A DNA stretch of 58,898 nt, counting the filler, from Squatina squatina (Eukaryota): the NCBI GenBank assembly GCA_031763465.1. It is 3 parts of 3 records of this genome, joined end to end, with 100 filler letters (N's around TTAATTAATTAA, not from the genome) between each part and the next. Parts side by side here need not be neighbours in the genome. Positions count along the whole stretch, not along the records: positions 1 to 12,477 come from JARFOE010000189.1; 2 more parts are not named here. One strand, 5' to 3'. Below the pieces are notes generated by a model. That model ran no database searches, was not told the DNA's origin, and saw nothing but the letters and a program-made list of their open reading frames with translations. A program made the translations under genes and the position numbers. Below are positions 1 to 48,862 of this stretch, piece by piece (positions within the stretch are counted from its first letter, which is position 1; each line of letters opens with the position of its first letter).

Positions 1-965
1 CAGTGCATCCTCTGTTTAATATAATTGATATGAACCATCACACCTGCTAGGACATTGGCAGAGTAGAGTCAATGGCTGTTTGCGGTCTTAGCTTCTATTT
101 TCCACCTCTGTCTGGCTTGAGGCAATGTTCCGTCTCCAAATATTACATCTGCTGTGAGGGTTTCATGAAATCACCATTCTGATTTATAATTGCACATATA
201 GTAAATGCCACGGAAATTGCTGCTGTTAATGACTGATAATGTATAATATTGTGGACAAAGGTTTAAATGAAACTTTAGTTTGAAGTTTATTTCCAAGGGC
301 TTTGCCAAACGGCAAAGAAAAAAAAACTACTGAGTTTTAAGCAGTGTAAATATTACATTAGTTTCCTAATGAGGGTATGTTGTGAGTTACTGGCATCTTT
401 TGTTTCTGATGTGTGATTAATGCGACAGATGACAAACCCAAATGAACAATCATCATTTAAGTGTAATAAAGGAAAGTAATGTTGCCTATGTGAAGAAATC
501 TAGAAATAAGCTACTTAAATATGTTTTCTCTCTGTGCTTACTTTGATTAGGCACTCTATTTCACTGCCATTTCACATTAATAGAGAACAAACACTCGATG
601 CAACCTTTTAGAAATTAATTCTGTATGTGAGTTGTCTGATTCTGTTGCAAGTGAAGGGTAAAAACCTGGTAGGTTGTCTCTTTAAATAAGATCTGCAGTG
701 TTGATGTAACCCTCTAGCATGGATGGTAGGAACCATTCTCACCTCTGCAGCAGGGAGCTTGACCAGAAAGGCTCTCTCAGGCAATGGAAATGTGCTGTTT
801 GTTAAAATGCACTGAATTACAGCAATTCCCCTGGTTATGACTCCTTTTTTTGGTAGCTTCCAATCTGTCGGTAAAAGAGACAGTTCATATGCCTTGCTGT
901 GAAGGAAAATATTGAAAACAACAATGTTGTGACTCACGTCTTTTCTTCTTTCTTTAATTCCACAG

Positions 966-1173
966 AACACCGTAGCAGTGGCATCAGTTCAGTTGCCACC
1001 AGCAATTTTCACTCATTTCCTAGCCTTGCACACTGTTGACAACTCATCTTGCAAGCTGCAATTTATTGTATTCCGGAATGGAAAACTCTTTCCCAGTACA
1101 GGTAACTCATCAAACCTTGCTGATGATGGGAAACGCAAGTGTGTTTCGACTCCAGTTGTCTTCATCAAAATAG
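966..1173 (+). CDS. ADGRA1: Internal exon of an ADGRA-family adhesion GPCR encoding part of the GAIN domain; probably belongs to the ADGRA1 gene downstream
   Basis: Pyrimidine-rich acceptor ttaattccacag| and donor |gtaaga. Translates NTVAVASVQLPPAIFTHFLALHTVDNSSCKLQFIVFRNGKLFPSTGNSSNLADDGKRKCVSTPVVFIKI, matching the recalled ADGRA3 GAIN segment (ASIQLPP...KLQLIAFRNGKLFPATGNSTNLADDGKRR.V.TPVI). Family assignment is strong; assignment to ADGRA1 rests on scaffold linkage across gaps. Confidence 0.75.
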
Positions 1174-1689
1174 GTAAGATTTTATTTAAATTTGAAAATG
1201 TAAATATTCCTGATATTTTAAATGATATGCACAAGATTGCAAAATTGCATGTCTATTTAACACCTGATGTGGGTTTTAATTTTACTTTGAGGGACAATGA
1301 AAATGAGCAGTTTCTCTGTTTGCAGTAGATTGCTTTTCAGACCATTTAAAAAATGTAGCATTTGACTAAAATAATACTGGTTGCGTTGCTGACCTTCAAT
1401 TTGTTGCTACATATGGATGTAAAAGGGAGATTTGTGTCCAATAGCTGCATCATAATCTCTAATGTCAGTTTCTATAGTTCTCCGTAATTACTATATCCAA
1501 TTATGGAACTTATTCAAACAAGTCTACCCGTTCTGAAAATGTGTCCCTTTTATGCCCATCATTCAGGCAGCATTCCAATATAGAATGTAATGTATGGCAT
1601 GTAATCAGGCATAAACAGCATGCATTGCTAAAAATGATTTTTGCTCTGCTTTCTATTTTTAAACATCATCTATAAGCGTAAAGATTTTG

Positions 1690-2170
1690 CTAAGGATACC
1701 TTTGTCTAACCCACTAATATATGCATTAAAAATACCAAGGATCCCAAGTCTAACCCCTGTCATATCCTCTTTGCAAATTGAAACATTTTCATTTATAACT
1801 ACCCTCAGTTTCTTGTTATTAAGTGCATCACTTGTTCATTATCAAACCCCTTATTTTATGATACCTCCATAGCCATTAATTGTCAATGCAGAACGTTGCC
1901 AGAAGCTTTCTGAAAATCCAAGTATACAATATTAACCGCCTTACCAACTATTATCAAATTAGTTGAACATAATCTCTTCCTCCTAAAACCCTGCTGACTG
2001 CCCTATAACAAGCTATGCTCTACCAACTGTTCATTTTGAAGATTTTCCCTACAACTGATGTTAAACTTACTATGTAATTCCCATGAATATCTCTGACACT
2101 TTTTTTAAATAATGGAGGTACCTTGGCCACTTTTTAATCTTTGGACATCTCTTTCAGACTTACAAATATA
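1690..2170 (-). mobile_element. Decayed CR1-type LINE reverse transcriptase fragment
   Basis: Minus strand carries remnants of the CR1 RT motifs PLFKK, VSLTSVVGK, QQGFR..R.CSTNL and VYLDFQKA, with stops and indels; boundaries approximate. Confidence 0.7.
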
Positions 2171-2408
2171 TCAGATATTCACTAATTTCAGGATCTCATC
2201 TCCTTTAAATCTTGTGGGTGCATGTTAATTTAACCATGGCTATTATTATTTGCATAATCTCTCGCTCCTCTGCTTTTTTGGGGGCATTTGATTTCTGACT
2301 TGGGCTTCATTCCTTCTTCTAACCTCAGTAAAGTTGCTGGTGAAATAGTTATACTGAGCACAAATTCCCTCGATCATTTTAAGCCCCAAACAAAATGCTA
2401 TCCAATGC

Positions 2409-2537
2409 AACAACAACTAGCATTTATATCGCACCTTTAACATAATAAAACATCCCAAGGTGCTTCATAAGTGCGTAATAAGACGGGGAGAAAATGACAC
2501 CGTGCCAAAGAAAGTGACCAAAAGCTTGGTCAAAGAG
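2409..2537 (-). mobile_element. L2-type LINE 3' end
   Basis: caacaacaactagcatttatatcgcacctttaac...catcccaaggtgcttca is the reverse complement of an L2-type 3' tail with (TTG)n; a homologous copy lies at 26360-26610. Confidence 0.6.
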
Positions 2538-4457
2538 NNNNNNNNNNNNNNNNNNNNNNNNNNNNNNNNNNNNNNNNNNNNNNNNNNNNNNNNNNNNNNN
2601 NNNNNNNNNNNNNNNNNNNNNNNNNNNNNNNNNNNNNNNNNNNNNNNNNNNNNNNNNNNNNNNNNNNNNNNNNNNTTCTAATCGGGCATAAGACAGATGA
2701 AGAGTTAAATAAAATATATTATTTTTAAAGAGCACAGAAGAAACAAGGGCATTAAGTCCTAATTTTCCACAGCAGTAGTTGCCATGTTATTGTAACACCC
2801 ATGCATGGGCTTATAATTTGTTACTGATGTCACTGCCTGTAATATATATTTGACATTCTTTCCCACAATAAACCCTGCATGGTGTTCAAGATGAAATCAT
2901 TAGCTACTGTAGAGTGCTACGAGATATGTCTTACAATGTTGTCAAAATGTCACCAGCATATTCCAATTCATTTCAGTGGCTTTGTATCTCCAGTGGCATT
3001 CTCTTTCATTTCCGTTCAGACTTGTATTCCACATCACAAGCAATATACAATATGCATATAAATTGAGCATTAACCCTGTCAGAGAAAGAATGGGTGTGAC
3101 AAATCTGTGTACATGGTGAGATCATCAACATCAAAACATACTTAACATCCCTTTCCAATAGCAACAATTTGGAAATATTGGGTTTAAAAGTGCTTTATCA
3201 TTTTGAACAGGAATTTTCTGATAGGTGAATTGAAGCATTAAATCCAACTCTCGCATGCCGAAATCAAATGTATTGAATTTATAAATTCCTTATTTCAGCA
3301 GAATTACACCTAGATAAATAGGTTCAGCTTGTTTACATTTTGAAAGGTTTGTAATTGTGTAAATGCCAAGGTATTGGTATGTATTTGTAAAAGCCAGCTG
3401 TACTGACGACTGTGGAACAGAGGATAAGTGTGTGCAGAATACTAATCTGCTGTCAGATGGAGCACAGATGTTGGCCAATCATAGCATGGGTCTGTGACGG
3501 TCTGTAATGTAATGTNNNNNNNNNNNNNNNNNNNNNNNNNNNNNNNNNNNNNNNNNNNNNNNNNNNNNNNNNNNNNNNNNNNNNNNNNNNNNNNNNNNNN
3601 NNNNNNNNNNNNNNNCAATGCTCAGTCACAGAGGTTATCAGCACTTGGAGGGACTTGTCATCACAATGGGATTTTCTCACTTGACATTCAGCCATTTTCA
3701 ACAAAAAATGCCCTTTTCACAGCTGGATTTGTGAACTTTTCGTTATTTAAGTTGGTTATGTGAGTTATTCGATGCTAGAGAGACATTAAAGGATCATTAT
3801 TGCAGCTGTGTCATGATCGGGTGCTAATGTTTCATTGGCGCTAATGAAGCTGCAATCTCGGAAATTGCCCTTNNNNNNNNNNTTTCAAAACTGAGATTTC
3901 ATTAGGAGTTTAATAATTATGTTGAAAATAGGCATTTCTCCCAATTTTCGTTAAATGAAGAATACTGGGCTCGAGATTCCATAAAGATAAGGGATCAAAA
4001 TAGCCACTAAGCCACTTGTCTGTGCTAAGCAGATGTACTCAGGTCCAAATCATTAATCTCTGTATAAATGCTCCTTCACTCCTTCCTTCCTTCTCTCTCC
4101 CATTCCTTCTTTCTCAAAATGGCTACAAAAGACTTACAAAGACGATTGCAGCGATCATCTAAATCTTTTAATAATGATTTAGCTGGAAGTAAATCTCTCT
4201 GTGGTGAAACAGTTGTAGCTTGTATCATGCCAGGTAGATTGAAGTGAAATACAAAAATAGCTGCTAACTTGTCATGGGATTGCATTAATGTTTTCTGAGA
4301 GACAAGTATGTTTTTCAAATTAGTTCTTCTCGAGAAAGTGAATTTCTAAGCCTTTTTAGTTATAAGATATATATAAAGCTCAATTAAATATGTTCACTTT
4401 TCTATTATGTGAGAAAGAAGCAGTGAATATTAATGATTATGTTGAATTGTTTTCCAG

Positions 4458-4585
4458 GATTTGAAGACCGTGCTTTCCTTCAATCAGTACCCAGGGGAGT
4501 TCCTGCACCCTGTGGTATATGCATGCACTGCAGTCCTTTTGCTGTGCCTTTTCGCATCCATTATCACCTACATTGTGCATCACAG
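4458..4585 (+). CDS. ADGRA1: ADGRA1 (GPR123) exon, stalk and TM1
   Basis: tttccag| ... |gtagga. Translates [42 protein letters not shown], versus recalled human ADGRA1 N-terminus [43 protein letters not shown]. Ends in phase 2, compatible with the next exon. Confidence 0.95.
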
Positions 4586-4611
4586 GTAGGAACTGCAAAT
4601 AACATATAATT

Positions 4612-7021
4612 ATTGATTTGTTTCTCTGTGATTGACAGATTGCTGTTTTTCTGGAATTGACGGGATTGCTGTGTTAACCTGGGATTGGCAAGGTTGCTGT
4701 ATTTCCCGGAGATTGACAGTATTGTTCCGTTTCCCTGGGACTGATGGAATTGCTGTGTTTCCGTGGGATGGACGAGATAGTTGTGTATCTTTGGGATTGA
4801 CGAGATTGATGTGTTGCTTGTATTGATGGGATTGCTGTGTTTCTGTGAGTGGTGGGAGTACTGTGTTTCCATGGGATTGATCGGATTGTTGTGATTTCCT
4901 GGGTTTAATAGGATTGATATGTTTCACTGGGATTGACCGGATCACCATGTTTCTCTGGGATTTATGCAATTGCCGTGTTTCTGGAATTGTTAGGATACTG
5001 TGTTTCTGGAATTGACAGGATTGCCATGTTTCACGGGGATTGATAGTGTAGCTGTGTTTCTGGGATTGAAGGGATTATTGTGTTTCCCGTGGATTGACAA
5101 AATTGTTGTTTATCCATGGGATTGATGGGAAGATTGTGTTTCTTTTGGTTTGATGGGATTGCTGTGTTTCTGTGATTGATGGGATCGCTGTGTTTCTGTG
5201 ATTGCTGGATTAGTTGTGTTTCTGGGATTGACAGGATTGCTGAGTTTCCCTGAGATTGACGGGAGTACTGTGTTTCTGGGACAGACGGCATTGATGCATT
5301 TTGCTTAGATAGATGGGATTGCTCTGTTTCTGTGATCGACAGGATTGCTGTGTTTCTGGGATTGAAGGATTTGCTGTGTTTAACCGGAATTGATAGGATA
5401 GCTGTGTTTCTGGGATTGATGGGATTGTTGTGTTTCCCTGGGATTGACAGAATTGTTGTGTTTCCCTGGGATTGACGTGGTAGTTGTGTTTCCTGGATTG
5501 ATGCAATTGTAGTGTTTCTCGGATTGACAGGATTGTTGCGTTTCCCTGGGATTGATGCGATTGATATGTTTCACTGGGATTGACGGAATTGATGTGTTGC
5601 TTGGTTTGACGGGATTGCTGTTTTTCTGGGATTGACGACATTGTTGTGATTCCCTGGGATTGAGGGGATTGCTGTGTTTCTCAAATAGACAAGATTGCTG
5701 TGTTTCTGTGAATGATGGAATTGCTGTGTTTCCATGGGATTGACGTGATTGATGTGTTTCTGCGAGTGGTGGGAGAACTGTGTTTCCATGGGATTGACGG
5801 GATTGTCATGTTTCCATGGGTTTGACTGTCTTGCTTTGTTTCTCTGTGATTGACAGGTTGCTGTTTTTCTGGAATGACGGGATTGTTGTGTTTCCCTGGG
5901 ATTGGCAGGGTTGCTGTATTTCCCGGAGATTGACGGGATTGTTCTGTTTCCCTGGGACTGATGGAATTGCTGTATTTCTACGATGGGCGGGATTGCTGGG
6001 TTTCAGGGATTGACAGGATTGCCAGATTGTCTAGGATTGTCGCAATTGCTGTGTTCCTGGGATTGACAGGATTGATCTGTTTCCCTGGGATTGACAGAAT
6101 TGCTGTGTGTCCATGGGATTGACAGGATTACTGCGTTTCTGGGATTGCCGGGATTGTTGTGTTTCTCTGGGATTGACAGAATTATTGTGTTTCCCGGGGA
6201 TTGACGTGCTAGTTGTCTTTCATGGATTTATAGAATTGTTGTGTTTCTCTGGGATTGATGGGCTTGATATGTTTCACTGGGATTGACGGAATTGCTGTGT
6301 TTCTGGGATTGACGGGATTGCTCTGTTTCTGGGATTGATGACATTGTTGTGATTCCCTGGGATTGACGGGATTGCTGTGTTTCTCAGATTGACAGGATTG
6401 CTGTGTTTCTGTGAATGATGGAATTGCTGTGTTTCCATGGGGTTGATGAGATTTTTGCCTATCCCTGGGATTGACGAGATTGATATGTTGCTGGGATTGA
6501 TGGGATTGCTGTGTTTCTGTGAATGGTGGGAGTACTGTGTTTCCATGGGATTGACGGGATTGTTGTGATGCCCTGGGATTAACGGGATTCATATGTTTCA
6601 CTGTGAATGACGGGATCGCCATGTTTCTCTGGGATTGAAAGAATTGTCGTGTTTCTGGAATTGTAAGGATGCTGTGTTTCTGGGATTGAAAGGATTCTGT
6701 GTTTCACTGGGATTGATGGGGTAGCTCTGTTTCTGGGATTGAAAGGATTATTGTGTTTCCCTTGGATTGACAGAATTGTTGTTTATCCATGGGAATGATG
6801 TGATTGTTCTGTTTCCTTGTGTTTGATGGGATTGCTGTGTTTCTGTAATTGATGGGATTGCTGTGTTTCTGTGATTGCTGGATTTCTTGTGTTTCTGGGA
6901 TTGACAGGATTTCTGAGTTTCTGGGATTGACATGATTACTGTGTTTCCCTGGGATTGATAGGGTTGTTGTGTTTCCCTTGGATTGATGGGGTTGATATGT
7001 TTCACTGGGATTGACGGAAAT
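4612..7021. repeat. Intronic minisatellite, 26-28 bp unit (about GGGATTGACGGGATTGCTGTGTTTCT), with higher-order blocks; truncated by a gap
   Basis: Tandem degenerate units are directly visible; strongly G/T-rich on the + strand; roughly 90 units by length/unit estimate. Confidence 0.95.
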
Positions 7022-7121
7022 NNNNNNNNNNNNNNNNNNNNNNNNNNNNNNNNNNNNNNNNNNNNNNNNNNNNNNNNNNNNNNNNNNNNNNNNNNNNNNN
7101 NNNNNNNNNNNNNNNNNNNNN

Positions 7122-7410
7122 TGTCTGGAAGGCAGAAGAGATTAAGAGATGATGCAAGGCAATCAGAGGTGGTAATGGCAACATAACGAAGCACATTATA
7201 TCTAGATGGGGTGTAAACAGGGGGAAAAGACAACAGCAGCCATGAGAGGGAAATGAAAAATAGACCTGATTTTAAATGACGAAAAGAAAAAAAATGAAAA
7301 AATGATAGAGCAGAGGTTATGCTTGAAATTGTTGAACTCAATGTTAAGTCCAGAAGGCTGAAAAGTGCCAAATCGAAAGATGAGGTGCTGTTCCTCGAGC
7401 TTGCGTTCTA
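7122..7410 (-). mobile_element. Penelope-like element remnant (C-terminus of the GIY-YIG endonuclease region and 3' flank)
   Basis: Minus-strand peptide RKLEEQHLIFRFGTFQPSGLNIEFNNF resembles the C-terminal E...I..L.T..P.GLN motif of Penelope GIY-YIG domains. Confidence 0.75.
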
Positions 7411-7496
7411 TCATAGCCTCTATCATAATTCTTTCTGTTTGTGAACAAAGAAAAGGTATAAATAAAGCTGTGTTACAAATGTTTCTTTTCTGACAG

Positions 7497-7620
7497 CACC
7501 ATCCGCATTAGCAGGAAAGGCTGGCATATGCTGCTGAACTTCTGTTTCCATACTGCCCTCACTTGTGCTGTATTTGCTGGAGGCATCAATCGTACAAAAT
7601 ACCCAATCATCTGTCAAGCT
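7497..7620 (+). CDS. ADGRA1: ADGRA1 exon, ICL1-TM2-ECL1
   Basis: tttcttttctgacag| ... |gtgagt. Translates (S)[41 protein letters not shown]; [10 protein letters not shown] is ADGRA1-specific. In frame with both flanking exons. Not in the ORF track. Confidence 0.95.
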
Positions 7621-8059
7621 GTGAGTATCAAATTAACTTAGTAGTTTGGGGAGTCACTAAATGGGAGAATTAATGATATAACCTACTGAAGTAACTGATT
7701 ATTGTACATTCAAAACTTCAGATGAAAAATAAGATGGCAAAGGAGGCTCGATTTTACTGTTCCACAGTTTCTGCTTTAAATAAAATGTTTCATCATATAT
7801 TCTGCACAGAATAGCATAAGGGGCGCATTAACCTTATTTCTAAACCTAATGTCACTTTATTGTGTTTTTTTGCTTGAGATTGCTGGATGATTTTTCAGAA
7901 TCTGCTCACTGGTTTCTGTCATGTAGCTGCAGTTTTGTGCAAGATTGTATGGCAATGAATCATTAATGAATACGTAGAACCCAAATTATTTCCTGTTCAG
8001 AATTCTCTAGATAAAGCGAAATAAATGGTCATTTTTAAATTTTTTTATACAAAAGTGGA

Positions 8060-8595
8060 ACAATTGCAGAGGTACTGGCCATAATCTTCCAATCCTCCTT
8101 GGGTGGTGCTAGAGGACTGGAGAATTGCAAATGTTACCCTTGTTCAAAAATGGGTGTAAGGATAAACCCAACAACTACAGGCCAGTCAATTTAACCTTGG
8201 TAGTGGGGAAGCTTTTAGAAATGNNNNNNNNNNNNNNNNNNNNNNNNNNNNNNNNNNNNNNNNNNNNNNNNNNNNNNNNNNNNNNNNNNNNNNNNNNNNN
8301 NNNNNNNNNNNNNNNNNNNNNNNAAACAGATTTTCGGTTATTGGCAGAAGATCTAAAGGTGACATGAGGACATTTTTATGCAGCGAGTGATTATGATCTG
8401 GAATGAACTGCCTGAAAGGATGGTGAAGGCCAATTAAATCGTGGCTTTCAAAAGGGAATTGGATAAGTACCTGAAGGAGAAACAATTGCAGGGCTGCGGG
8501 GAAAGAGTGGGGGATGGGACTAGCTGAAGTACTCTTGCAGAGAGCCAACACGGGCTCGATGGGCCAAATGGCCTCCTACTGTGCTGTAAAGACTC
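8060..8595 (+). mobile_element. CR1 LINE fragments (RT region, gap, 3' end)
   Basis: EDWRIANV/PLFKNGCKDKPNNYRPVNLTLVVGKLLE before the gap; CR1 ORF2 C-terminal and 3' UTR motif gggccaaatggcctcctactgtgctg after it. Confidence 0.85.
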
Positions 8596-9879
8596 TAACT
8601 TAAAGAGTTAAAATGAATTCGAAGAAACTAATGTTTAATGAATCACAGGTCACACAATAACATCATTATATAATTTTAGTTCCAATCTAAATTAACACAG
8701 TACAATGATTTCATTTAATTAAAATTGGCATTTCCCTGTATTATCCAGGGGCTTTATTGATAACTACAAAGAGTAAGTTGACAGCAATTTGCATATTTAA
8801 TCATCAACTAGTCACACGTCCTTACTACAGCTGCGTTGACCTGATAAGGACAAGCAGAACTGCATCCAAGCAGGGAATGTGGTTTGGAACCTGAAGGATT
8901 CAAACCTGCTGTTTTAGGAAATCAAAAATGGGCCAATGAATTTGGGGCACAATCGTTGGTAGAGGCTTGTGGAGGGGACAGGCATATGTATTGTTCCAGT
9001 TTTAGGAATGGGTCATCTTCTAGATAATGGAGAATAGCTGTCATCTATGGTCATCCAGGCTATGGTTATACATCACACTCGTTTGATCCAGCCTTCTTAT
9101 GGGCTTATGTATCCCAACAGAAATGTCTGCAATAATTGATCTCAAACATCCAGAAACACTAATTTTATGATTGATCAGTTTAGCTTATTGGTCCTTTCTT
9201 GGAACTAGTTCTTCAAACCAGATTTTTAATACCATATTTAATTGTATTGCAAGCTGAAATTATGTTTATTAATCAATGCCTTGGGGCATTCTAATATATA
9301 AAGGAAGCCATATTGCAGTGCTCATATTAAACCTTGCAAGCAAAGACTAAACATTGTGATATTTATTATGAATATATATAAAAGCTGTTAATTATATGTG
9401 AGAGTTCTTCACAGACTTGATTGCCAATAAGCCTATGGTATATTGTGGTCATTATATCTTCATTAAAATGTCTTTTTTTTTACAGGTCACTTTGCATTTT
9501 TTTCAGGCATTTATCATAAATATATAAATTTAGATTAACTGGATGTACTAATAACAACCGTCTTGTTTAAAATCCCATATCTCCCTCTACTTTACTCCTA
9601 TGAGACTGAATCTGTCTGGCAAAAAGACACAAAGAAAATTGATTTGAGTCATGAAGCAAAGTGTTCCCTCAAGACCGTTATTGCAAAAGATGAACCATAT
9701 CTGTTAAGTCAAATGATTGGCACATATGTAACTGGAGTAAAATCAAATATTATACCCAGATGGCACTATCCCAGCAGTTTGAAAAGTTTTAACCCCAATG
9801 GTATTAAACTTGTTTTTTTTCCAAAAGCTGTTTGAGAATGGGAAACAATATTTAAAAGGGAGATTATTAAAAGAGGGTT

Positions 9880-10110
9880 TCAGTGCTGCAGTGAACTAGC
9901 ATATTGCTCTTTCAGTTCTGGAACCTGGTTTCAAACCCAAATCAAACTGAGATGACAGTATCCTTTTTTATGCCGACTGTAAGAATACGATATGAAATTC
10001 GTTTAGCCAGTTGCAGCCCAATTCTTGGAAAGTACAAATGTGTGGCACAAAATTATTCATAATTTCGTAGTAAATTGACCATCTCACTCCAAGAGACCCC
10101 GAGCGTGGTT
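9880..10110 (+). mobile_element. Old tRNA-derived SINE (MER131-like)
   Basis: B-box-like ctggtttcaaaccca followed by a body resembling my recollection of MER131 (gttt...cagttgcagcccaattctt...cacaaaa); highly diverged. Confidence 0.4.
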
Positions 10111-10245
10111 GCTTTGGGAAGTGGAAAAAAATAATACTGCTGTAGTGGTGACACTGTTTTGAGTTTGAGTTAAAGGACATTGTAAGGTAATTATGGAAAA
10201 GGAAGGCCATTCAGTCCATCTTAGTTCATCCATTCAGAGAGATTA

Positions 10246-10912
10246 AGGGCGGCCAATTCGATTGCCCTGAGTTACTGGTGCTAAGGGATGAATTGGTGAG
10301 CGCAAAGTTCCAGTCTCGAAATGCTCCCTTTAAGGCCTGCAATTTGACAAATAGAAAAAAAAATTCTGACAGCTTTAAAAAACTTGCTAATTTCAGTGCT
10401 AAAGGGCACTTTTAATCTTAGTTTATTTCAGCNNNNNNNNNNNNNNNNNNNNNNNNNNNNNNNNNNNNNNNNNNNNNNNNNNNNNNNNNNNNNNNNNNNN
10501 NNNNNNNNNNNNNNNNNNNNNNNNNNNNNNNNCACTGCAGCACAGTCATGGTGCACTGATGTCATTAGCATGGCGCTGACATTGTAAGTGCGCTCGCGAT
10601 ATCCAGGGCCAGATGTCCCAATACCGCCCCAGGAACGCGGCGGACATCACTACGCCTCACTCCCGCCACGGTAAATGGAATTCCGTGGCGGGCGCAGAAT
10701 TTCGGGAGCCGCCAGGAAAATTACCAACTACCGCTGATACCACCCCGGGGGTATTTTGCCTCCTCTGACTCTTTAAAAAGCTGAGTGGGAAATCCCACGT
10801 TTGAGCAGGACCTGGAGTATCCGGATCCCAGCCTCCTTCTGTGCTGCTCCACCAGACTCCCGCCCACAATACGGCAGCTGTATGGAGGAACAACCTTGTA
10901 AATTTGGCTCCT
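10246..10912. mobile_element. GC-rich non-autonomous DNA transposon (MITE-like) sequence spanning a gap
   Basis: CpG-rich island in AT-rich intron; ends gggcggccaatt ... aatttggctcc resemble other GGG(N)nAATT termini in the window; contains ccctttaagg motif. Confidence 0.45.
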
Positions 10913-11387
10913 ATTATGTTAAATATCTGCTGTGAATTTTTCATGAATATGAAAGAAACCATACAAAATTGTATTCCAGAGTGGATTTACCTTTGTCATT
11001 CTTGAGGGATCAGAATCATGCATGGCAGAGGTGGGGAGAAGCTGATATATTCAAGATATGATTCTTATGAATTATAAGACGATCTTAAAAACAGATTCCA
11101 ATATTTGCTCATTTGAATTATACGTGGAGATTCATTCACATTGTGCCCTCTGACCAATGTTCAAATATTCATCGCTTCTCATGAGAGTTCTTAAAAATAA
11201 AAGCCAGCAAAAACAGCTTCTCATACCCTCGAATTACTAAGAGAACAAGAATTTTATAATATGCAATGAAGCCACAGTTTGTTTTTTACATGACAAAATC
11301 ATTTGTATTCATTACACGACACCCATAAATACTTATATTGACTTTCTCTCTTCCTGCTTGTATAACGTAGATATCTTTGTGTTTTAG

Positions 11388-11489
11388 GTTGGGATCGTTT
11401 TACACTATTCCACTCTATCTACAATCTTCTGGATTTGTGTCACCGCCAGGAATATTTACAAGCAAGTGACAAGAAAGGTCCCTCAGTGC
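11388..11489 (+). CDS. ADGRA1: ADGRA1 exon, TM3-ICL2 (truncated by gap)
   Basis: ctttgtgttttag| then [34 protein letters not shown], versus recalled ADGRA1 [34 protein letters not shown]. Confidence 0.93.
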
Positions 11490-12477
11490 NNNNNNNNNNN
11501 NNNNNNNNNNNNNNNNNNNNNNNNNNNNNNNNNNNNNNNNNNNNNNNNNNNNNNNNNNNNNNNNNNNNNNNNNNNNNNNNNNNNNNNNNCAACACTTCAT
11601 CAGGACTTCTTCACTAAATTCAGTAGACTTTTGCACAGATGTACTAAATCAACAGTAAAATCACCATTTGGCATCATCCTCATTTGCAGCTGTGCAGAAT
11701 TGACTTGGGCTGCAGCAAGTAGCATCAGGATTGTTGTGGGGAGTGAGCGAATTGATATTTTCACAAGTGTGTATGTAACGACAAGTATAAAAAGATAAAT
11801 TGTTATCCTGTGAGATCCTGCATTCCCAGGGAGAAACTATATTCACAAGGAGCACGGGATGAAAATAGAGCTTCCAACATCAAAGCCCTGATTCTCCGAC
11901 CCACACTTCTGAGAGCACAGCTCCACACTGGGAGCAAAGATTGCAGAATCACCCCTGTTGAATATACTTTAAATTGATGTCTGAAATACAGTGCTAAAGT
12001 ACAAACATAGTTTTCGATATTTACCCATTTTTTATTTTCCATGTGTTAACATGACTAAACTGGAAAATTTTTGTATTCTGTGCTTCAGTTTCCTTATATT
12101 TTGCTTTCAAATATTCTAAAATTCCATCTTCATAAATAGGCAGCTATCTGAAACTGTTATCATTATTACTGGTGACGATAAATAGTGGTTCCCTTTTTAT
12201 GAGAGGGAGAAGGGCATCTTGATGTTAATTGACTTTCAAGTGGTGCTCTTAGATTCTTGGTAATTCAGTTAGATTTGATTCTGTTGTTCACAGCAGCAAG
12301 ACAATTTCAGATCACATTTTAAATTGATTGAATCACATGCCTTGTGAAAGAAATGCATTTAATTGCTTGGGGACCTGCTTGTCCATTTATTCAAAGCCAC
12401 AATTAATTAACATTTTGAAATGAGGATTTTGTAGTATTATGGGGAATTAAAATAAATTCAAATATACCAACCAATCT

Positions 12478-12577
12478 NNNNNNNNNNNNNNNNNNNNNNN
12501 NNNNNNNNNNNNNNNNNNNNNTTAATTAATTAANNNNNNNNNNNNNNNNNNNNNNNNNNNNNNNNNNNNNNNNNNNN
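12478..12577. other. Artificial scaffold linker N44-TTAATTAATTAA-N44
   Basis: 12-mer at 12522-12533 has stops in all six frames, is symmetrically flanked by 44 N, and recurs identically at 30029-30128. Confidence 0.95.
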
Positions 12578-14810: not shown

Positions 14811-14947
14811 CTAAACAATCAAACTCTAGATTTTATTCCAACAGTGTGGAAGATTCATATCGTTCAAAGAATCAAAAGGACCCTACAAGATAAATGTGCT
14901 GTAATTTTTTGGTTGCTGATGGTTTCTTTTGTTTTTTCCCCCTATAG

Positions 14948-15237
14948 GTGCTGAGGGTTCGGAAGAAGGGTCAAGTGGAGATTCTCTTCTGGAGTGGTTG
15001 AATGCTTTTAGACAGACGGGGAACACGACAAGAAGTGGGCAAAGTGGGAATCGGTCATGGAGAGCAGTCAGTCGTACAAACCCACCGAGTGGCGATTTTA
15101 GATTCAGCCTGGAAATTAACGTCAGTCGCAGTAGAATTGATCAAAGTGCCGAGATGGAAAGTGAGCAACCCATGGACACTTCAAACGCAGCAGCAACAGT
15201 GCCACCAGCAGAAGAAGCAGCAGCAGCAGCTACATGA
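14948..15237 (+). CDS. RLIM: RLIM (RNF12) large last coding exon, 5' part
   Basis: Acceptor ttttttccccctatag|. Translates [48 protein letters not shown], matching recalled RLIM. Ends in TGA just after a (GCA)n run, probably a mis-join. Confidence 0.88.
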
Positions 15238-15687
15238 TCTGCCTGGGATAGGGGATGCTCAAAAAGGGGGCTGTCTCATCTTTTCCCCAAAACATCCCCT
15301 CCTTCAAGTGATAAATGTTACAGTATTAAGAGTGTAGTTTAAAAATAGGTATTCATGGGAAAAAAATCAAAGCCACAAATAGCCCTGAAACACCAATTTC
15401 TTGCACCTGTGTCCTTCAGTTCCTAAAGGACCTGGATATTGTGATTTAAAATTAGTGATGAAGGATATCCTGTACCCCTCACTACACAACTGTGATATGC
15501 CATATTCTGTCACAACGACGCATTTGAAATGGTTCCCCATTGTTGAGGGACCAAATAAAATAATCGCATTCTTTATAGGTCTCCTAANNNNNNNNNNNNN
15601 NNNNNNNNNNNNNNNNNNNNNNNNNNNNNNNNNNNNNNNNNNNNNNNNNNNNNNNNNNNNNNNNNNNNNNNNNNNNNNNNNNNNNNN

Positions 15688-16920
15688 CACCAATAACCGC
15701 AGAAGAAAATATCCAGAGTGAACCCGAGAGGTCTGAATCCACTGCAACAAGGCAGAGTAGAAGGCCAAGTGGGGAACTGTCATATGAAAACAGATACGAA
15801 CTTTTGAGACGAGAGCTTGAAACCCAGGCCCATCAAGGTCGTCCAAGAAGTGGTAGAAGCAGAAGCCCAGAACGCCGAAGGTCATCTAGAACAAGAAATA
15901 ATCGAAGTCGGTCACCCTTGCATCCAATTGTTGAGGGGACGAGTAGATCCCGACGTCAGGGGTCTTCTCACAGGCCTGATAGATCCATTTCACAAAGTGG
16001 GACAGAAGGAAGTTCCAGAACTAGACAGCATGTGGTGTCCAGGCAGAGCCGGGTTGGAGACGAGGTGCAGGCTGAAGTAACTAATCCTATTTCTGTGCCT
16101 GAGCCAAGTGAACCCAGAGAGCCTTCCCAAGAAGCTGCTGATTCTTCAGAAGCTGTTGTCAATGATCCCTCTGTAGCCGGGCGCCGACCACCTACTATTA
16201 TGTTGGATCTGCAAGTGAGAAGGGTGAGACCTGGTGAAAATGCAGATAGAGATAGTATAGCCAACAGGACCCGCTCACGATCCCAAACATCTGACAACAC
16301 AGTTGTATACGAAAGTGAGCGGGGTGGGCTTAGGCGCACATTCTCCCGCTCTGAGCGAGCAGGAGTGCGAACTTACGTGAGCACCATTCGAATTCCTTTT
16401 CGCAGGATTTCTGATTCGGGTCTTGGAGAGGCTGCCTCAGTTGCTCTCCAAACCATACTACGCCGGATAATGATGGGTGGGGAACTGAGTTCCTTTGTGG
16501 ATAGTGACAGCGATTCTGAATCGAGCAACAGGGGCCAAAATCAAGTGCAGGAAGTCTCTGAATCACAGAACAGCACAAGTGAATCCCCAAGCATGACCTC
16601 TGAAGGCAGAACAGGGGAGCAACAGGCAGGGGAACAACGGAACGGCAGTGAAACAGATAGCACAACTGGTGCGAGGAGAAGAGAAGGTCAGCAAACTCGT
16701 GGCTTGTTTGGCCTTGAAGAAAGTGGTACTTTGCCTATACTTAGGCTTGCCCATTTCTTCCTGCTAAATGATGAAGATGAGGATGATCAGCCCAGGGGAC
16801 TGACTAAAGAGCAGATTGACAACTTGTCCACAAGAAATTTTGGGGAAAGTGATGCAATTAAAACCTGCAGTGTGTGCATTAGTGAGTACACTTCTGGAAA
16901 CAAGCTGCGCAATCTTCCCT
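15688..16920 (+). CDS. RLIM: RLIM (RNF12) E3 ubiquitin ligase, large last exon, 3' part up to the start of the RING-H2 domain (gap-bounded)
   Basis: Frame is open from the gap (first full codon 15690). Contains RSRSP motifs, RPPTIMLDLQVRRVRPGE, RRTFSRSERAGVRTYVSTIRIP, DDQPRGLTKEQIDNL and KTCSVCISEYTSGNKLRNLP. TEGSSRTR and ESERGG favour RLIM over RNF6, as does tail-to-tail position with SLC16A2. Confidence 0.93.
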
Positions 16921-19266
16921 NNNNNNNNNNNNNNNNNNNNNNNNNNNNNNNNNNNNNNNNNNNNNNNNNNNNNNNNNNNNNNNNNNNNNNNNNNNNNNNN
17001 NNNNNNNNNNNNNNNNNNNNNNNNNNNNNNNNNNNNNNNNNNNNNNNNNNNNNNNNNNNNNNNNNNNNNNNNNNNNNNNNNNNNNNNNNNNNNNNNNNNN
17101 NNNNATATAAAATTGTACTTCAGAATGTAGTGGGGAAATTCAAAATAGCCATACCTAATACTTCTACGTGACTGCTTCCTATCCTCTGTTCAAGGAAAGG
17201 CTTTTTTTTTTGCTAATCTTTAATATGGGTTTGGACATTTCTTTTTATTAATACTTTTGCAAGTGTGCACCGTTGCACTGTTAAAGTGAGAAGATTTTAC
17301 CATGCTCAGAAACAAACTATAGCGATACATACTGTAGTGAGGGCACAGCTTCTGGCATCTGGTTTCTTATGTCTGTTGGCTTAACCCCTTAAGGATTTGT
17401 TCTTAGCTTGGTAAATAAGTTATTTAAACTTTAATGCTTCTTCCACCCATTTTGTAAAAGCTGAATCCTTGCCCTGATTTCTGTCACGTTGTTAGTGCTT
17501 CATCTGGGTTAGCTGTATTGAATTTCAATTTTTTCATTTTTTGTAATTATTTTGTAATCAAAATCATTTCCTTTTCTGATGTATGATTTTGGTTTATGTG
17601 CACACTCACAGTGATGGTGTATTTTAGCAATTCAGAGTATTTGTTCACTTTTCGTTGCAGGGTCTGTGTACTTGGGAAGGGGAAATTGGCCACTGTTTTG
17701 AAAAAAAAAATATGAAATTTGCAATGCAAATTGTCACTGCTGTTTTTAAAAAAAATTTCTAATTTACTGAACATCTTTAATGGACAGATTGCCTTATACT
17801 ACAANNNNNNNNNNNNNNNNNNNNNNNNNNNNNNNNNNNNNNNNNNNNNNNNNNNNNNNNNNNNNNNNNNNNNNNNNNNNNNNNNNNNNNNNNNNNNNNN
17901 NNNNATACTACAACATGTATCAAGTCTATGGGACTAATTGGAGACATCCAGCTGTTAAGTATTGTTTTTTTTCTGTACAGTGGAATTACTATCTCATCCA
18001 TTTTTAGTGATGTCCATTAAAAAAAAATTACCATCAATTTATTTCCTTTTTTTATGGAGTTACTCTGCACCTCCCTTTTTATCAACTCTTTCCTCTCCAC
18101 CTTGCACCGCTGGGTTTTTAAAAATATTTTAAAGTGGGGAATGACCCACCAGTCCAATGACACGGACTCTTGAATAAGAAGCATTTTGCCTTTGGGAAGC
18201 TGGCTGTTTTTTATTTCTCTACAATCGGTTGGAACAGCGGCAATGTGTATGGGTATGCTAGGCACTCGCCACATTTCTGCCGCCCTCCGCCACTGCGCTA
18301 TGTAATCTGTGCCTAATAAAAGACCTGTGACTTCGCAGCTCGCCACTTAAATGGCAGTTGGTTTTGCTGCAACCCTGCAGCAGTATGTCTGTGGGCAGGC
18401 TGTGTAGCAGACTACTCTCTGAAATCCTGATGGAATATTGGGGACTTCTGTGGTAGGTAAGTGTCGACCTGGTTTGCATGGAATATAAGCTCCAGTATTC
18501 AGCCAATTGACAATGTTGCATTTATAGGATGTAGAGGGTAAGGATGCTGCAGTGTAATAAAACACACTGGAATTGCAGTTTGGTTTTTTTTAACCATGAA
18601 ATTAAAATGTTACAATTGTGATATAGCTAATGTAACCGAATTGAAAAATCATAAGAGGTCCTTTTTGAGGCAGAATGGCTGTTTTTGTCTTAGATATATA
18701 TGCACAGGATAATGGAAAGTAATGTCCTCATTTAGTCTGTTGCTTATCCTGATGTATATGGAAAAACCCATTTTTGTACAAAAATGACCAGATATTAATG
18801 GCATCTTGTATAAATTTTAAATGCCAATATTGTAACGTGCACTTGCATTACTGAAATAGTTTAGTTCCACAGAGCAAATATTATTGAAGAATGATGCTAT
18901 GACACAAAATAGGAATCCCACAGACTGTGATCAATCCTGCATAAGGCGAACTGTGTAATAAAGATTCAAAGCAAATTAGGAGACGAGTGCTTTAAGAAGT
19001 CCAGGGAGAGTTCTTCCCTTAGCTGCAGGAGTCTTACCAAAGTGCATGTGCTTTGGTTTACTGTACAGGGCTTGTTTAAAGTGATTTAGTTTATTTATGT
19101 AATCTGTTGTACTAATTTTTGTAAATTAGTAACTGAGTTTTCATGCAAAAAAAAAGTTTGTTTACCCAGTTGTCACATAGCTTTCTGGGGAGAGGAAACA
19201 TCAATTGCAGATAGACGTTATCTTTTGACATTGACCATTTGAAAAGTTGGGTTATCCATAAATGTT

Positions 19267-20596: not shown

Positions 20597-20986
<390 letters not shown>

Positions 20987-21683: not shown

Positions 21684-21914
<231 letters not shown>

Positions 21915-23425: not shown

Positions 23426-24028
<603 letters not shown>

Positions 24029-30028: not shown

Positions 30029-30128
30029 NNNNNNNNNNNNNNNNNNNNNNNNNNNNNNNNNNNNNNNNNNNNTTAATTAATTAANNNNNNNNNNNNNNNN
30101 NNNNNNNNNNNNNNNNNNNNNNNNNNNN
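30029..30128. other. Artificial scaffold linker N44-TTAATTAATTAA-N44
   Basis: Identical in design to 12478-12577; 12-mer at 30073-30084. Confidence 0.95.
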
Positions 30129-44397: not shown

Positions 44398-45117
44398 ACA
44401 GAAATATGCCACAACTGCAACCTCAGAGCAGGGCGAGGTCTGCTATATCAGTGGCTGTGAAGCTGATTGTGCGATAAACTTTTATGCAGCTGGCTCCTTC
44501 CAGGCTGGAGCTGGAAACATCTCACAGTTTGCCATCCACTGTTGCGTAAGGGAGCTCACTGAGGCTCTCTATTCAAAGAGAGCAGATGGAGCGAGCACAT
44601 GGCTTTGCTAGGATTTTAGGCTTCCCCATGATGCAGGGTGCTATTGACTGCACGCACATCGCTTTGCGGGTGCCGCATGTCAACTCTGCCATGTACTGCA
44701 ACCGAAAGGAATTCCACTCCCTCAACATCAAGCTGGTGAGCGACCAGAAGAAGCAAATCATTCAGGTCAATGACGGTATCCTGCCAGCAATCATGATGCC
44801 TTCATTCTGCACCAGTTCGCTGTGCTATCTGCATTTCAGCCATTATGCAAACCATGGCTACTGGGCTCAAGGGATATTCACTGATATCTTGTCTGATGAC
44901 TCCAGTGCACAAACCACGCACCCATGCACAGCATGCATACAATGAGAGCCATGTTACCACAAGGAATGTGATGGAGCAGACCATTGGCATGCTACAAAAA
45001 TGCTTCCATTACCTGGACCACTCTGGAGGAGTACTGCATTATTCAGCAGAGCGGGTGTCAAGATTTGGGGTAGTCTGTTGCATGCTGCACATCCTCACCA
45101 TGAGGGCACACCCCTGA
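44398..45117 (+). pseudogene. Harbinger (HARBI1-like) DDE transposase, frameshifted
   Basis: NFYAAGSFQ, GFPMMQGAIDCTHIAL, YCNRKEFHSLN, SNHDAFIL, KGY..LMTP, YNESHVTTRNVMEQTIGMLQKCF and VCCMLH are spread over different frames, with a stop at 44475-44477. Confidence 0.9.
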
Positions 45118-45502: not shown

Positions 45503-47268
45503 TCACAGATGGCCTTGCAGGACGACCTCAAGTAGCTTTGGGCCTAGACGGCCCAGCTGAAGCCTGTGCCATCTCGGCATGGGCGACAGCAGTCTGTCTG
45601 GCTGGCTGACAGGCAACAGCAAGGGCACTGGCGGAGTGGCAGTGATGAGAGGATGAATGTTGTCACCCTGAGAGAGGGCAGCAGGTTTGTGCTCCACGGA
45701 GCCGTTGTCATTCCAGAAGGACGGCTTCTCAGCAATCCTAATAATCTGTTGGAGGACAGATTGTTGGACTGCTGTGACAGCCTGCAAGCTTGAACATTGG
45801 TATCTGCAGCCATGATGGCAGCAGTCTGAGTTTGCATGAGTGCATTCTTAGATTGAAAGGCAGCAAGCTGACCTTGCATGACAGGAGTCTGAGCTTCCGC
45901 TGCAACATCAAGATGCTGCAATGGAAGCTGAGACATCAGCCATCAGAAGCTGCATCATGATTGGCTCCACAAGTGCTGAAGTAGAGTTGGCCACCACATT
46001 CATCCTGGAAAGGATTGGCTCCAAGCTCTGCACAAAGCCCTGTGCCAAGTTAGTGCTGGACTCATCCATGCTCCTTGACATTGAACGCAGGTTTTCGGCA
46101 GGCTTCCCAAAGCACAAAGCATTTTGTTGTGTATATTCATCAGCCTTCTTCTGTAGTCCGCCTGTCAAACTGCTCATCTGAGTCCTCTGCAGCAGAACTC
46201 ATGTGCGATATCGCACTCCGGCAAGCTGGCATCCGCGCTAACCTTGCCCCTTTTCCTGGCTGCAGACCACTCATGCCCGATGTCTCACCATGTGCAGATG
46301 CCAACTCTATGCTTTCCTATAAATTATGCAGTATCAGTATCTGAGCTGATGGCTGTGTGTATGAAATTAAGTGATGGGGGTGTTTCTTCGTCATCAGTGT
46401 CTTGATGCTCTTCAACCTGTTGCTCTTCCTCCACTGCCTGGCAAGGTTGTAATTCTTGGGTATCTGAAAGGAAAAAAGGCACAAGGGTAAGGTTGTGGTG
46501 AGAGAAGTGGGGGAATAGCAAGAGGTGCATGTTTACACCATCTGCAGCTTGTAAACCAGAAGACATTGTGGGATGAGCGGGAAGTGGGATGTGAGAAGGA
46601 GGATTAGGTATGAGGATACCGTAATTTTCTATGGTTTCAGCCCCACCACTGGCCACGGCCTCAGCAATGGCCGCTCCAGTGATGGTGAACACGGTCTCTT
46701 TCATGGGTGTAAGGATATGCAGGCAAACCTGTTCCTTGCTGGTTAACTCCTGCTGCCTCCGGTTGTGCACCACCTTGTCCTGCAAGAGAGAGAGAAGTGT
46801 GGCAGTGAGTGTGGTGCAATCTGTTTGGGTGATGTGGCTATCATGGTTGTATAGCTGCCAGTGTTGCGAGCTATGAGATATGGGTGTGAGGCTTGCAGCA
46901 TGCAAAGGGTGAGGGTGAGGTGCAGCTATGAATGTTAGGTATGAGTCCTGATTGATAGAGATTGTTGGTAGGTGAGTGATGGGGATGTGGTGCATTGAGC
47001 AGTTGGTGGGATATGGCATTTAAAGATGAATTCACTGACCTTGACCACTCTTGTGGATCACTATACTTTTTGCAGCACTGCATCCAGGTCCTCTTGGCTT
47101 GACTCCTGGCATTGACGGCCAGGGTTATCTGCTCCCACTGCCTTTGTCTGGAGTGCCTCCTGGCCCCCTGTGATACAGCACTTCTCTCCTTCTTTCCACC
47201 TCCTCCAAGAAGGCCTCCAATGCAGCATCTGAGAACCTTGAAGCATGCTCTCTCCATTGTTGTGCCAT
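45503..47268 (-). pseudogene. Harbinger Myb/SANT-like DNA-binding partner gene, three exons, frameshifted
   Basis: ATG at 47268: MAQQWREHASRFSDAALEAFLEEVERRREVLY, shifting to QWEQITLAVNARSQAKRTWMQCCKKY. Donor after 47040; exon 46779-46620 (DKVVHNRRQQE...); acceptor before 46463, then acidic and coiled-coil-like remnants. Confidence 0.8.
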
Positions 47269-48862
47269 TATTCTGTATTTTTCACGTCAGAGTGACTTCC
47301 ACCACCTTCTCCAGTCATAATTCACCTCCCCTTTAAGGAGTGCAGGCTAGCTTTAACAATCATTATTTGTAGTATTTTGTCAAACTGAAACACTAACTTG
47401 TCAATTTTCACACTGGATAATGTTTAATATAAAGACAGTAGTTAATTAGAGTCTATAAACTGACTCACAAACTTGACATTGAAAGGCTGTTGCTCATTTC
47501 CTAACAGCATTACCTACGCATCAATGTTTATGAAACAGTTAATCTCTTCCTGAATCCCACAGTAAATTAGTGCTCAAAAATATTCTCTGAATGTACTTGA
47601 GCAGACTAGAAGGAATGTGTTTCCTGTTTGACCTTGCAGGAATTTAACTAAAGAATTGGCGAAGGTTTCATAATGTCAGGAATTACATCTGTTCATCAGG
47701 ATACAAAAGGACAGGCACATATGTCACTGAGGAGTTTTGGTGTTGTATCTATGAGTCTTTGCCAGCGCTCTTAAATTTCACAGAATAATCAGGATGTGAA
47801 ATGCATACAAACTGGTGTTTCCATTCTTCTGAAGTCATTTCTGACGTAAAAAGGATGTGCTCCTTTCTACCCTGTATACAGNNNNNNNNNNNNNNNNNNN
47901 NNNNNNNNNNNNNNNNNNNNNNNNNNNNNNNNNNNNNNNNNNNNNNNNNNNNNNNNNNNNNNNNNNNNNNNNNNNNNNNNNGTGCAATTTTGCGGGAGCT
48001 GATAGTGCCCCCTGGAGGCGCTAATGGACGTGTCACAAGGGGGTAATTTTGACCGCTGAATTTTGACGGAAAATTTGCAGGAGAAAATTGCACAGGTTTG
48101 AGGTGCTGAGAAAGACTGAGTTAGAATAGGAAGCTGTGCACTTAGTCTTGATTTCAATGCAATGAGGATATAGGAAGGAGGAAGAACACTCAGGATGGCA
48201 GGAATGTCTAACGAAGCACTGATTATTGTACTGATTAAAGAGGGATATTTAAGCTTTAGCAGTTTTAGACCTTTTGCAATTGAAGTTTAACAAAGATTTG
48301 TCCACTGTTGCCAGGCAATGCTGCCATTTGAAGACAGTTGGAAAACCGCGATTGAGGTTTTCTTTGCATTAATTCTGTGCCTCAGCTCCCTGATGGGATA
48401 AACTGGTAAAGGGAGAATTTGATTTATCCAGCAGTCTGGAGAGGTGCTGCCCATTCATTTGTTTTGTCTTCAGACTTTGGTTTGGATCACAAGAATTCCA
48501 GTGGCCTAAATCCAAATTGAATTTATCATCTTAACATTCTCTTTCATGTTCATAGCCATGCACACTTTTCTTTCACTTTCAATCTAAGTGATGGAGTGAG
48601 AGAGGTGGGAGGCTAATGGTGAGAAGAGCTGTTGCTTGTCAGCTGACAGGCTTTTTGTTCAATCTTGTCAAAGAATGCAAGAAAAATGTTATGAAAGCGT
48701 CCCCAGATATGGGCCAGAATTTTCCCAGCCCTGCGAGTGTGGGCTCAGAGGCAGGCCGCTGGNNNNNNNNNNNNNNNNNNNNNNNNNNNNNNNNNNNNNN
48801 NNNNNNNNNNNNNNNNNNNNNNNNNNNNNNNNNNNNNNNNNNNNNNNNNNNNNNNNNNNNNN

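Follow-up and report, generated by a model that had tools for sequence, protein, structure and literature searches.

ADGRA1 (GPR123) has been described as an exception among adhesion G protein-coupled receptors (class B2; aGPCRs). Tosun et al. (2026; PMC13178472) have reported ADGRA1 as the sole member without a GAIN domain and have suggested an evolutionary loss, and PMC12922695 likewise gives ADGRA1 as the one aGPCR without GAIN. Human and mouse ADGRA1 are without LRR, Ig, HormR, GAIN and the Stachel core, and their start Met corresponds to the final codon of the long form's GPS exon. The related ADGRA2 (GPR124) and ADGRA3 (GPR125) have a layout of LRR, Ig, HormR, GAIN and seven transmembrane helices (7TM), with ETTV at the C-terminus. 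Seufert et al. (2025; PMC11697300) have reported GAIN-bearing ADGRA1, with 84 homologues in 47 species; cartilaginous fish are absent from the 47 species in Supplementary Table 1 of that paper. The core finding, a long ADGRA1 outside the placentals, is already known. Here, a stretch of 58,898 nucleotides from the shark Squatina squatina (GenBank assembly GCA_031763465.1), called the window at its full length, was found to carry four exons of ADGRA1. We read the locus, with a probability of roughly 0.93, as the middle of a shark ADGRA1 in the ancestral full aGPCR form of about 1300 amino acids (aa), with signal peptide, LRR, Ig, HormR, GAIN, 7TM, a long tail and a PDZ-binding ETTV. The evidence observed is the identity, order and frame of the exons, together with the architecture and tree position of a nearly identical catshark protein.

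All four exons lie within the first scaffold of the window (positions 1-12477). Exon A (966..1173, + strand; 208 nt, phase 0 to 1) encodes a segment of GAIN subdomain B in 69 codons plus 1 nt, with the boundaries ...ccacag↓AAC and ATAG↓gtaaga. A protein search with exon A gave 222 matches among 251 candidates, the best 120 of which were listed. The closest of those listed was P0001, a 1309-aa protein model of the catshark Scyliorhinus canicula with the RefSeq name 'ADGRA3-like'. The segment corresponds to P0001 residues 595-664, with 68 of 69 residues identical over 595-663; identity was 88-94% to rays and chimaera (94% to Mobula), 74-75% to birds and turtles, and 63-71% to shark ADGRA2. Exon B (4458..4585, +; 128 nt, phase 0 to 2) is the first full coding exon of the short placental form. 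It opens with DLKTVLS, carries the DLKTVLS...HPVVYA linker and transmembrane helix 1 (TM1) signature of ADGRA1, as judged against named ADGRA1 models, and is identical to P0001 residues 734-775 (42/42). Exon C (7497..7620, +; 124 nt, phase 2 to 0) encodes intracellular loop 1, TM2 and extracellular loop 1 and is identical to residues 777-817 (41/41). Exon D (11388..11489, +) encodes TM3 and the start of intracellular loop 2, matches residues 818-850 (33/33) and is cut by an N gap at 11490. Exons B, C and D form one stop-free frame that agrees with P0001 residues 734-851 at 117 of 118 positions, the single difference lying in the codon that adjoins the gap. Every visible boundary is AG/GT. The earlier note had placed four exons on the same strand and in the expected order; this was confirmed, with boundaries slightly refined, canonical splice sites and an intact frame. 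P0001 matched the window exons by tblastn at E-values from 1e-36 to 8e-15, and the rest of the protein gave no match in the window below E 4. Searches of the window for the upstream ectodomain and downstream exons, by six-frame motif, tblastn and profile, found neither, and Pfam gave 0 meaningful matches on the single exons, which are too short.

P0001 holds all four exons in order, with 733 residues preceding the exon B part. Residues 664-733 (70 residues, ending in AVLM) separate the exon A part from the exon B part, so that exon A joins DLKTVLS through a GPS exon in this predicted protein, as the earlier note had asked to be checked. On the size given by P0001, the GPS exon is expected to have 209 nt and phase 1 to 0. 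It was not found in the visible DNA of the window by tblastn with P0001, nor by a profile of 28 orthologues (best 8.5 bits, E 0.28). The intron region between exons A and B (1174..4457, +) holds three N gaps (2538-2675, 3516-3615 and 3873-3882), and the GPS exon must lie inside one of them, a caveat that had been foreseen and was borne out. Since the gap at 23544-23643 is flanked on both sides by the same 19 bases, the 100-N gaps are unsized placeholders, and a 209-nt exon can therefore fit inside 3516-3615. This gap or the 138-N gap at 2538-2675 is the most likely location. Six N gaps lie between exon A and exon D. An intronic minisatellite of 2.4 kb (4625..7017; period about 27-28, about 88 copies, Tandem Repeats Finder score 1417-1493) sits directly 3' of exon B.

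Pfam searches of P0001 gave LRR_8 above the cut-off, HRM below the cut-off, GPS at residues 688-732 with 36.5 bits (cut-off 22.5) and 7tm_2 with 61.3 bits. A precomputed GAIN_ADGRA3 family call exists for the protein, and its C-terminal end is ETTV. An Ig domain is called in the possum and platypus orthologues and not in P0001 itself; the LRR/Ig/HormR/GAIN ectodomain proposed earlier as a possibility is in this way seen on the orthologues taken together. P0001 has the features of an aGPCR, namely a GAIN domain with membrane-adjacent GPS and a secretin-type 7TM. The definition used for human and mouse ADGRA1 (no GAIN, very short N-terminus) does not describe the shark locus, where exon A encodes a GAIN segment, although the 7TM and tail are orthologous and the DLKTVLS start and ETTV end are shared. 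The GAIN-bearing ADGRA1 of non-placental vertebrates is the same gene, with the same exon order and domain layout, and the catshark model is 99-100% identical to the window over the visible exons.

Over the part that starts at exon B, P0001 shares 62-65% identity with three placental ADGRA1 and 48-49% with shark ADGRA2, a paralogue with another linker before TM1 and with an ectodomain 59% identical to that of P0001; the published identity between ADGRA1 and ADGRA3 is 44% (PMC13178472). In a quick tree from exon B onward (55 rows, hand-chosen from 300 proteins to cover lineages and rooted with three shark ADGRA2), the long forms of catshark, rays and chimaera were sister to all ADGRA1 of bony vertebrates. 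The ADGRA1 clade, to the exclusion of ADGRA2, received a support of 100 in the quick trees by the Shimodaira-Hasegawa-like approximate likelihood ratio test (SH-aLRT). Trees of the ectodomain and of the C-terminal part (22 rows) recovered the same main groups, and the long models are not chimeras because both trees broadly follow vertebrate phylogeny. The ancestral long-form ADGRA1 that the earlier note had inferred is thus supported by the identity, architecture and chondrichthyan tree position of P0001. The same note had left it open whether long forms were already annotated in other fishes. They are annotated across fishes and tetrapods and are in print (PMC11697300), so that this point is settled and the novelty falls away. 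Among the matches listed, the name ADGRA1 is attached to long models from chimaera, gar, teleosts, Xenopus, caecilians, turtles, lizards and birds; many other long models wrongly carry the names ADGRA3 or ADGRA2. The shark and ray models are mostly named ADGRA3 or ADGRA3-like, and the chimaera model is ADGRA1 in UniRef. In the ESM Atlas, GAIN_ADGRA3 is assigned to 99% of the 1896 members of a cluster named ADGRA1 (1291 aa).

A long gene might nevertheless yield a main shark product that is short or GPS-less, by an internal promoter or by skipping of exon A and the GPS exon, in which case the ectodomain would matter less. Predicted short models also exist in species with long forms, namely a thrush, three marsupials and teleost adgra1b; the adgra1b short models share an alternative first exon, and in Takifugu the C-terminal part is identical to that of the long form. 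In addition, exactly exon A and the GPS exon are skipped together (417 nt, in frame) in 9 of 143 predicted long ADGRA1 models, from stingray, sturgeon (twice), eel, grouper, darter, two frogs and flycatcher (P0247, P0254, P0257, P0262, P0264, P0267, P0269, P0279 and P0299). Exon A is, however, under strong constraint, as its identity to Mobula and to birds and turtles shows, and an alternative first coding exon is not visible in 1174-4457, though gaps could hide one: a scan of this region for GTRAG consensus donors found one site, with stops upstream of it. A short main product is thus unlikely, and the full-length receptor is preferred. As an observation in its own right, the predicted skipping isoform, found from stingray to bird, would keep the adhesion domains and lose the GPS and Stachel.

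The full-length shark receptor is probably not autoproteolysed. Self-cleavage requires H-x-S/T (PMC13062082). The catshark GPS, from which that of the window is inferred, reads HF↓G and is without a Ser/Thr nucleophile, and on this ground the shark receptor is probably uncleaved. Rays have QF↓G, most teleosts HH↓N and marsupials mostly HW↓G. It is doubtful that the long shark receptor is a canonical self-cleaving aGPCR with a tethered agonist, even though the Stachel-like strand (xNF/IAVLM) is conserved, the canonical triad is present in 15 of 132 full-length models (birds, turtles, alligator and one caecilian, with H-F↓S) and the chimaera has Ser at +1. Against it stand the missing nucleophile in catshark and rays and the 115 of 132 full models with neither Ser nor Thr at +1 (any Ser/Thr in 17/132). 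By analogy, shark ADGRA1 would most likely work like ADGRA2, uncleaved and with an ectodomain binding a partner or co-receptor, and its 7TM and PDZ tail may couple to G proteins and scaffolds. The ADGRA2 partners RECK/Wnt7 have been tabulated (PMC13197933).

Several points weigh against this account. The GPS exon, ectodomain exons and 3' exons of the window itself are not visible, and the GPS triad and intactness are for this reason taken from the catshark; the protein models throughout are predictions, not checked transcripts, and all trees are without any true ADGRA3. ADGRA3 has been reported as cleaved despite a non-canonical GPS (PMC12059339), and prediction of cleavage from the motif is therefore fallible. 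A literature search for functional data on any long ADGRA1 found none. An AlphaFold2 run on P0001 residues 333-743, with an alignment of 50 rows, gave a poor model that is confident only in the helical part (mean predicted local distance difference test score 51.5, predicted template modelling score 0.50, TM-scores about 0.4), and the strands of exon A fall in its low-confidence region. The Foldseek result with this model speaks for the account: of 860 matches, the 5 at E<=0.001 are all GAIN-containing ectodomains of aGPCRs. A PDB sequence search with P0001 returned no ADGRA entry among the best 60 of 200 matches, these including LRR proteins and one ADGRL3 GAIN-7TM match. That exon A comes from ADGRA3 or ADGRA2 and was misscaffolded beside a short ADGRA1 in a fragmented assembly, with three gaps between exons A and B, a best match named 'ADGRA3-like' and shark ADGRA3 not among the sequences compared, is very improbable, since the protein that holds exons B-D at 100% also matches exon A at 99% (shark ADGRA2 far lower), the order of exon A, GPS exon and exon B is shared by 132 full models across jawed vertebrates, and SL↓S/G, the GPS of most vertebrate ADGRA3 (PMC12059339), occurs in 0 of these 132.

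Among mammals, the long form is kept outside the placentals. A search with a marsupial C-terminal query for proteins of at least 1008 residues gave 906 matches of 7348 candidates. Among the best 120 listed, the mammals with a GAIN family call were six marsupial models and the platypus; the sole placental was the human 1279-aa isoform 1, which carries the 7TM family only. Placental ADGRA1 appear in the search for short forms (513 matches of 2512 candidates), in which 66 of the best 120 matches start with M-D. Because marsupials and platypus keep GAIN and placental ADGRA1 turn up as short forms, the loss of the ectodomain is placental, not mammalian. The statement in the earlier note that mammalian ADGRA1 lacks GAIN therefore stands for placentals and fails for the platypus and the six marsupial models. 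Its placing of the short-form start at the AVLM of the GPS region was correct, the Met being the last codon of the GPS exon. In trees from exon B onward the placental short forms are nested among the long platypus and marsupial forms. A faster ectodomain on the marsupial stem (0.42 vs 0.14 changes/column) suggested relaxed selection, but this proposal was dropped, as the Xenopus ratio is alike (0.40 vs 0.11).

The GAIN-less human and mouse receptor would accordingly be derived, and may have arisen on the placental stem through silenced upstream exons. The old GPS exon would have become 5' leader and its last codon, the Met of AVLM at Stachel position +7, the start codon; such a start would also strip the core of the tethered agonist. 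The short N-terminus of placental ADGRA1 has been reported as dispensable for basal G-protein activation (PMC13178472), which fits a protein starting at Stachel +7. In a model of the cat Leopardus geoffroyi, M-DLKTV is immediately preceded by a decayed GPS exon (46.5 bits, against at most 7.0 in 1000 shuffles). In the human isoform-1 reference, NFAALM resembles the end of the GPS exon (0/20000 resamples), picked from a 721-residue stretch and off the junction. The N-terminal extension of the tenrec has no relic of the GPS end (p 0.21), and an ectodomain profile found no trace of exons lying upstream of the GPS exon in 13 real N-terminal extensions of short models; the other 6 of its 19 targets were mis-cut near-whole proteins and uninformative.

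Teleosts carry two ADGRA1 copies (PMC4335454, PMC2571103), and teleost adgra1a looks independently short. Its sequence signature was found in 41 short proteins and in 0 of 146 long ones, and its short form has the same M-D start as the placental form. In a model of the smelt Osmerus, the sequence exactly at the junction resembles the GPS end (p 1e-4). Forcing the placental and adgra1a short forms together was 125 log-likelihood units worse (24 rows, LG+G4; approximately unbiased test, p-AU 1.2e-6), with the groups named after the 55-row tree had been seen, and a single origin of the two is rejected. Against a second loss, adgra1a is divergent, so that a long adgra1a could rank below the best 120 matches listed. 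We consider it likely that the ADGRA1 ectodomain was shed twice independently, on the placental stem and in teleost adgra1a, each time with the GPS exon turned into 5' leader and its last codon into the start Met, along a route prepared by existing short and GPS-skipping isoforms. Among the matches listed, the newt Pleurodeles and lungfish (P0123, P0125) are represented solely by short models of 570 aa; these may reflect annotation cut short in giant genomes or additional losses. A search of the full-text literature, judged mostly from listings and with Lagerstrom et al. (2007) on GPR123 evolution, which may cover part of this, outside its scope, did not find the placental timing, the adgra1a loss, the relic exon or the skipping isoform.

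Overall, the GAIN-less ADGRA1 is a placental peculiarity among mammals, and the shark gene sets the long form at the base of the jawed vertebrates. Many public models under the names 'ADGRA3' and 'ADGRA3-like' are in fact ADGRA1; existing databases already contain most of what the shark exon offers. The ectodomain of the long orthologues could serve as bait for the ancestral ligand of this orphan brain receptor, and a long and a short form can be compared within one animal where a zebrafish-type adgra1a/adgra1b pair is present. If the two losses are true, sharks, birds, marsupials and adgra1b would provide natural long/short pairs for finding the lost ligand, and what an aGPCR does could be compared between forms that have GAIN and forms that lack it, together with the question whether birds and turtles gained self-cleavage.

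Beyond ADGRA1, the window consists of three unrelated scaffolds joined by linkers (44 N, TTAATTAATTAA, 44 N) at 12478-12577 and 30029-30128, and apparent neighbours across the linkers are therefore not synteny. The artificial linker at 12478..12577 closes the ADGRA1 scaffold, which stops at 12477 and holds no neighbouring gene. Exons of a RING ligase-type gene lie at 14947-17104 (+), with no Pfam match and the RING cut by a gap; from its translation we take this gene to be RLIM/RNF12-like. Two transporter-type exons at 23644-24027 (-) and 21684-21914 (-), with MFS_1 matches below the cut-off, are presumably SLC16A2/MCT8-like, and this gene and the RLIM-like gene are convergent. A YAP1-like exon, intact and with good splice sites, lies at 20690-20806 (-), about 880 bases downstream of a late SLC16A2-like exon and on its contig and strand; an Atlas lead points to the YAP1 cluster (score 0.80). 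Further YAP exons were not found in that scaffold by motif, and the exon may belong to a nested gene or to an additional YAP paralogue, or the contig may be chimeric. A scan for open reading frames (ORFs) beyond 17200 covered 150 of 193 ORFs, namely those before 49416. Fragments of a DDE_Tnp_4 transposase and of a Myb/SANT-like protein face each other at 44550-45114 (+) and 46874-47281 (-), an arrangement that we take to be that of a decayed PIF/Harbinger element.

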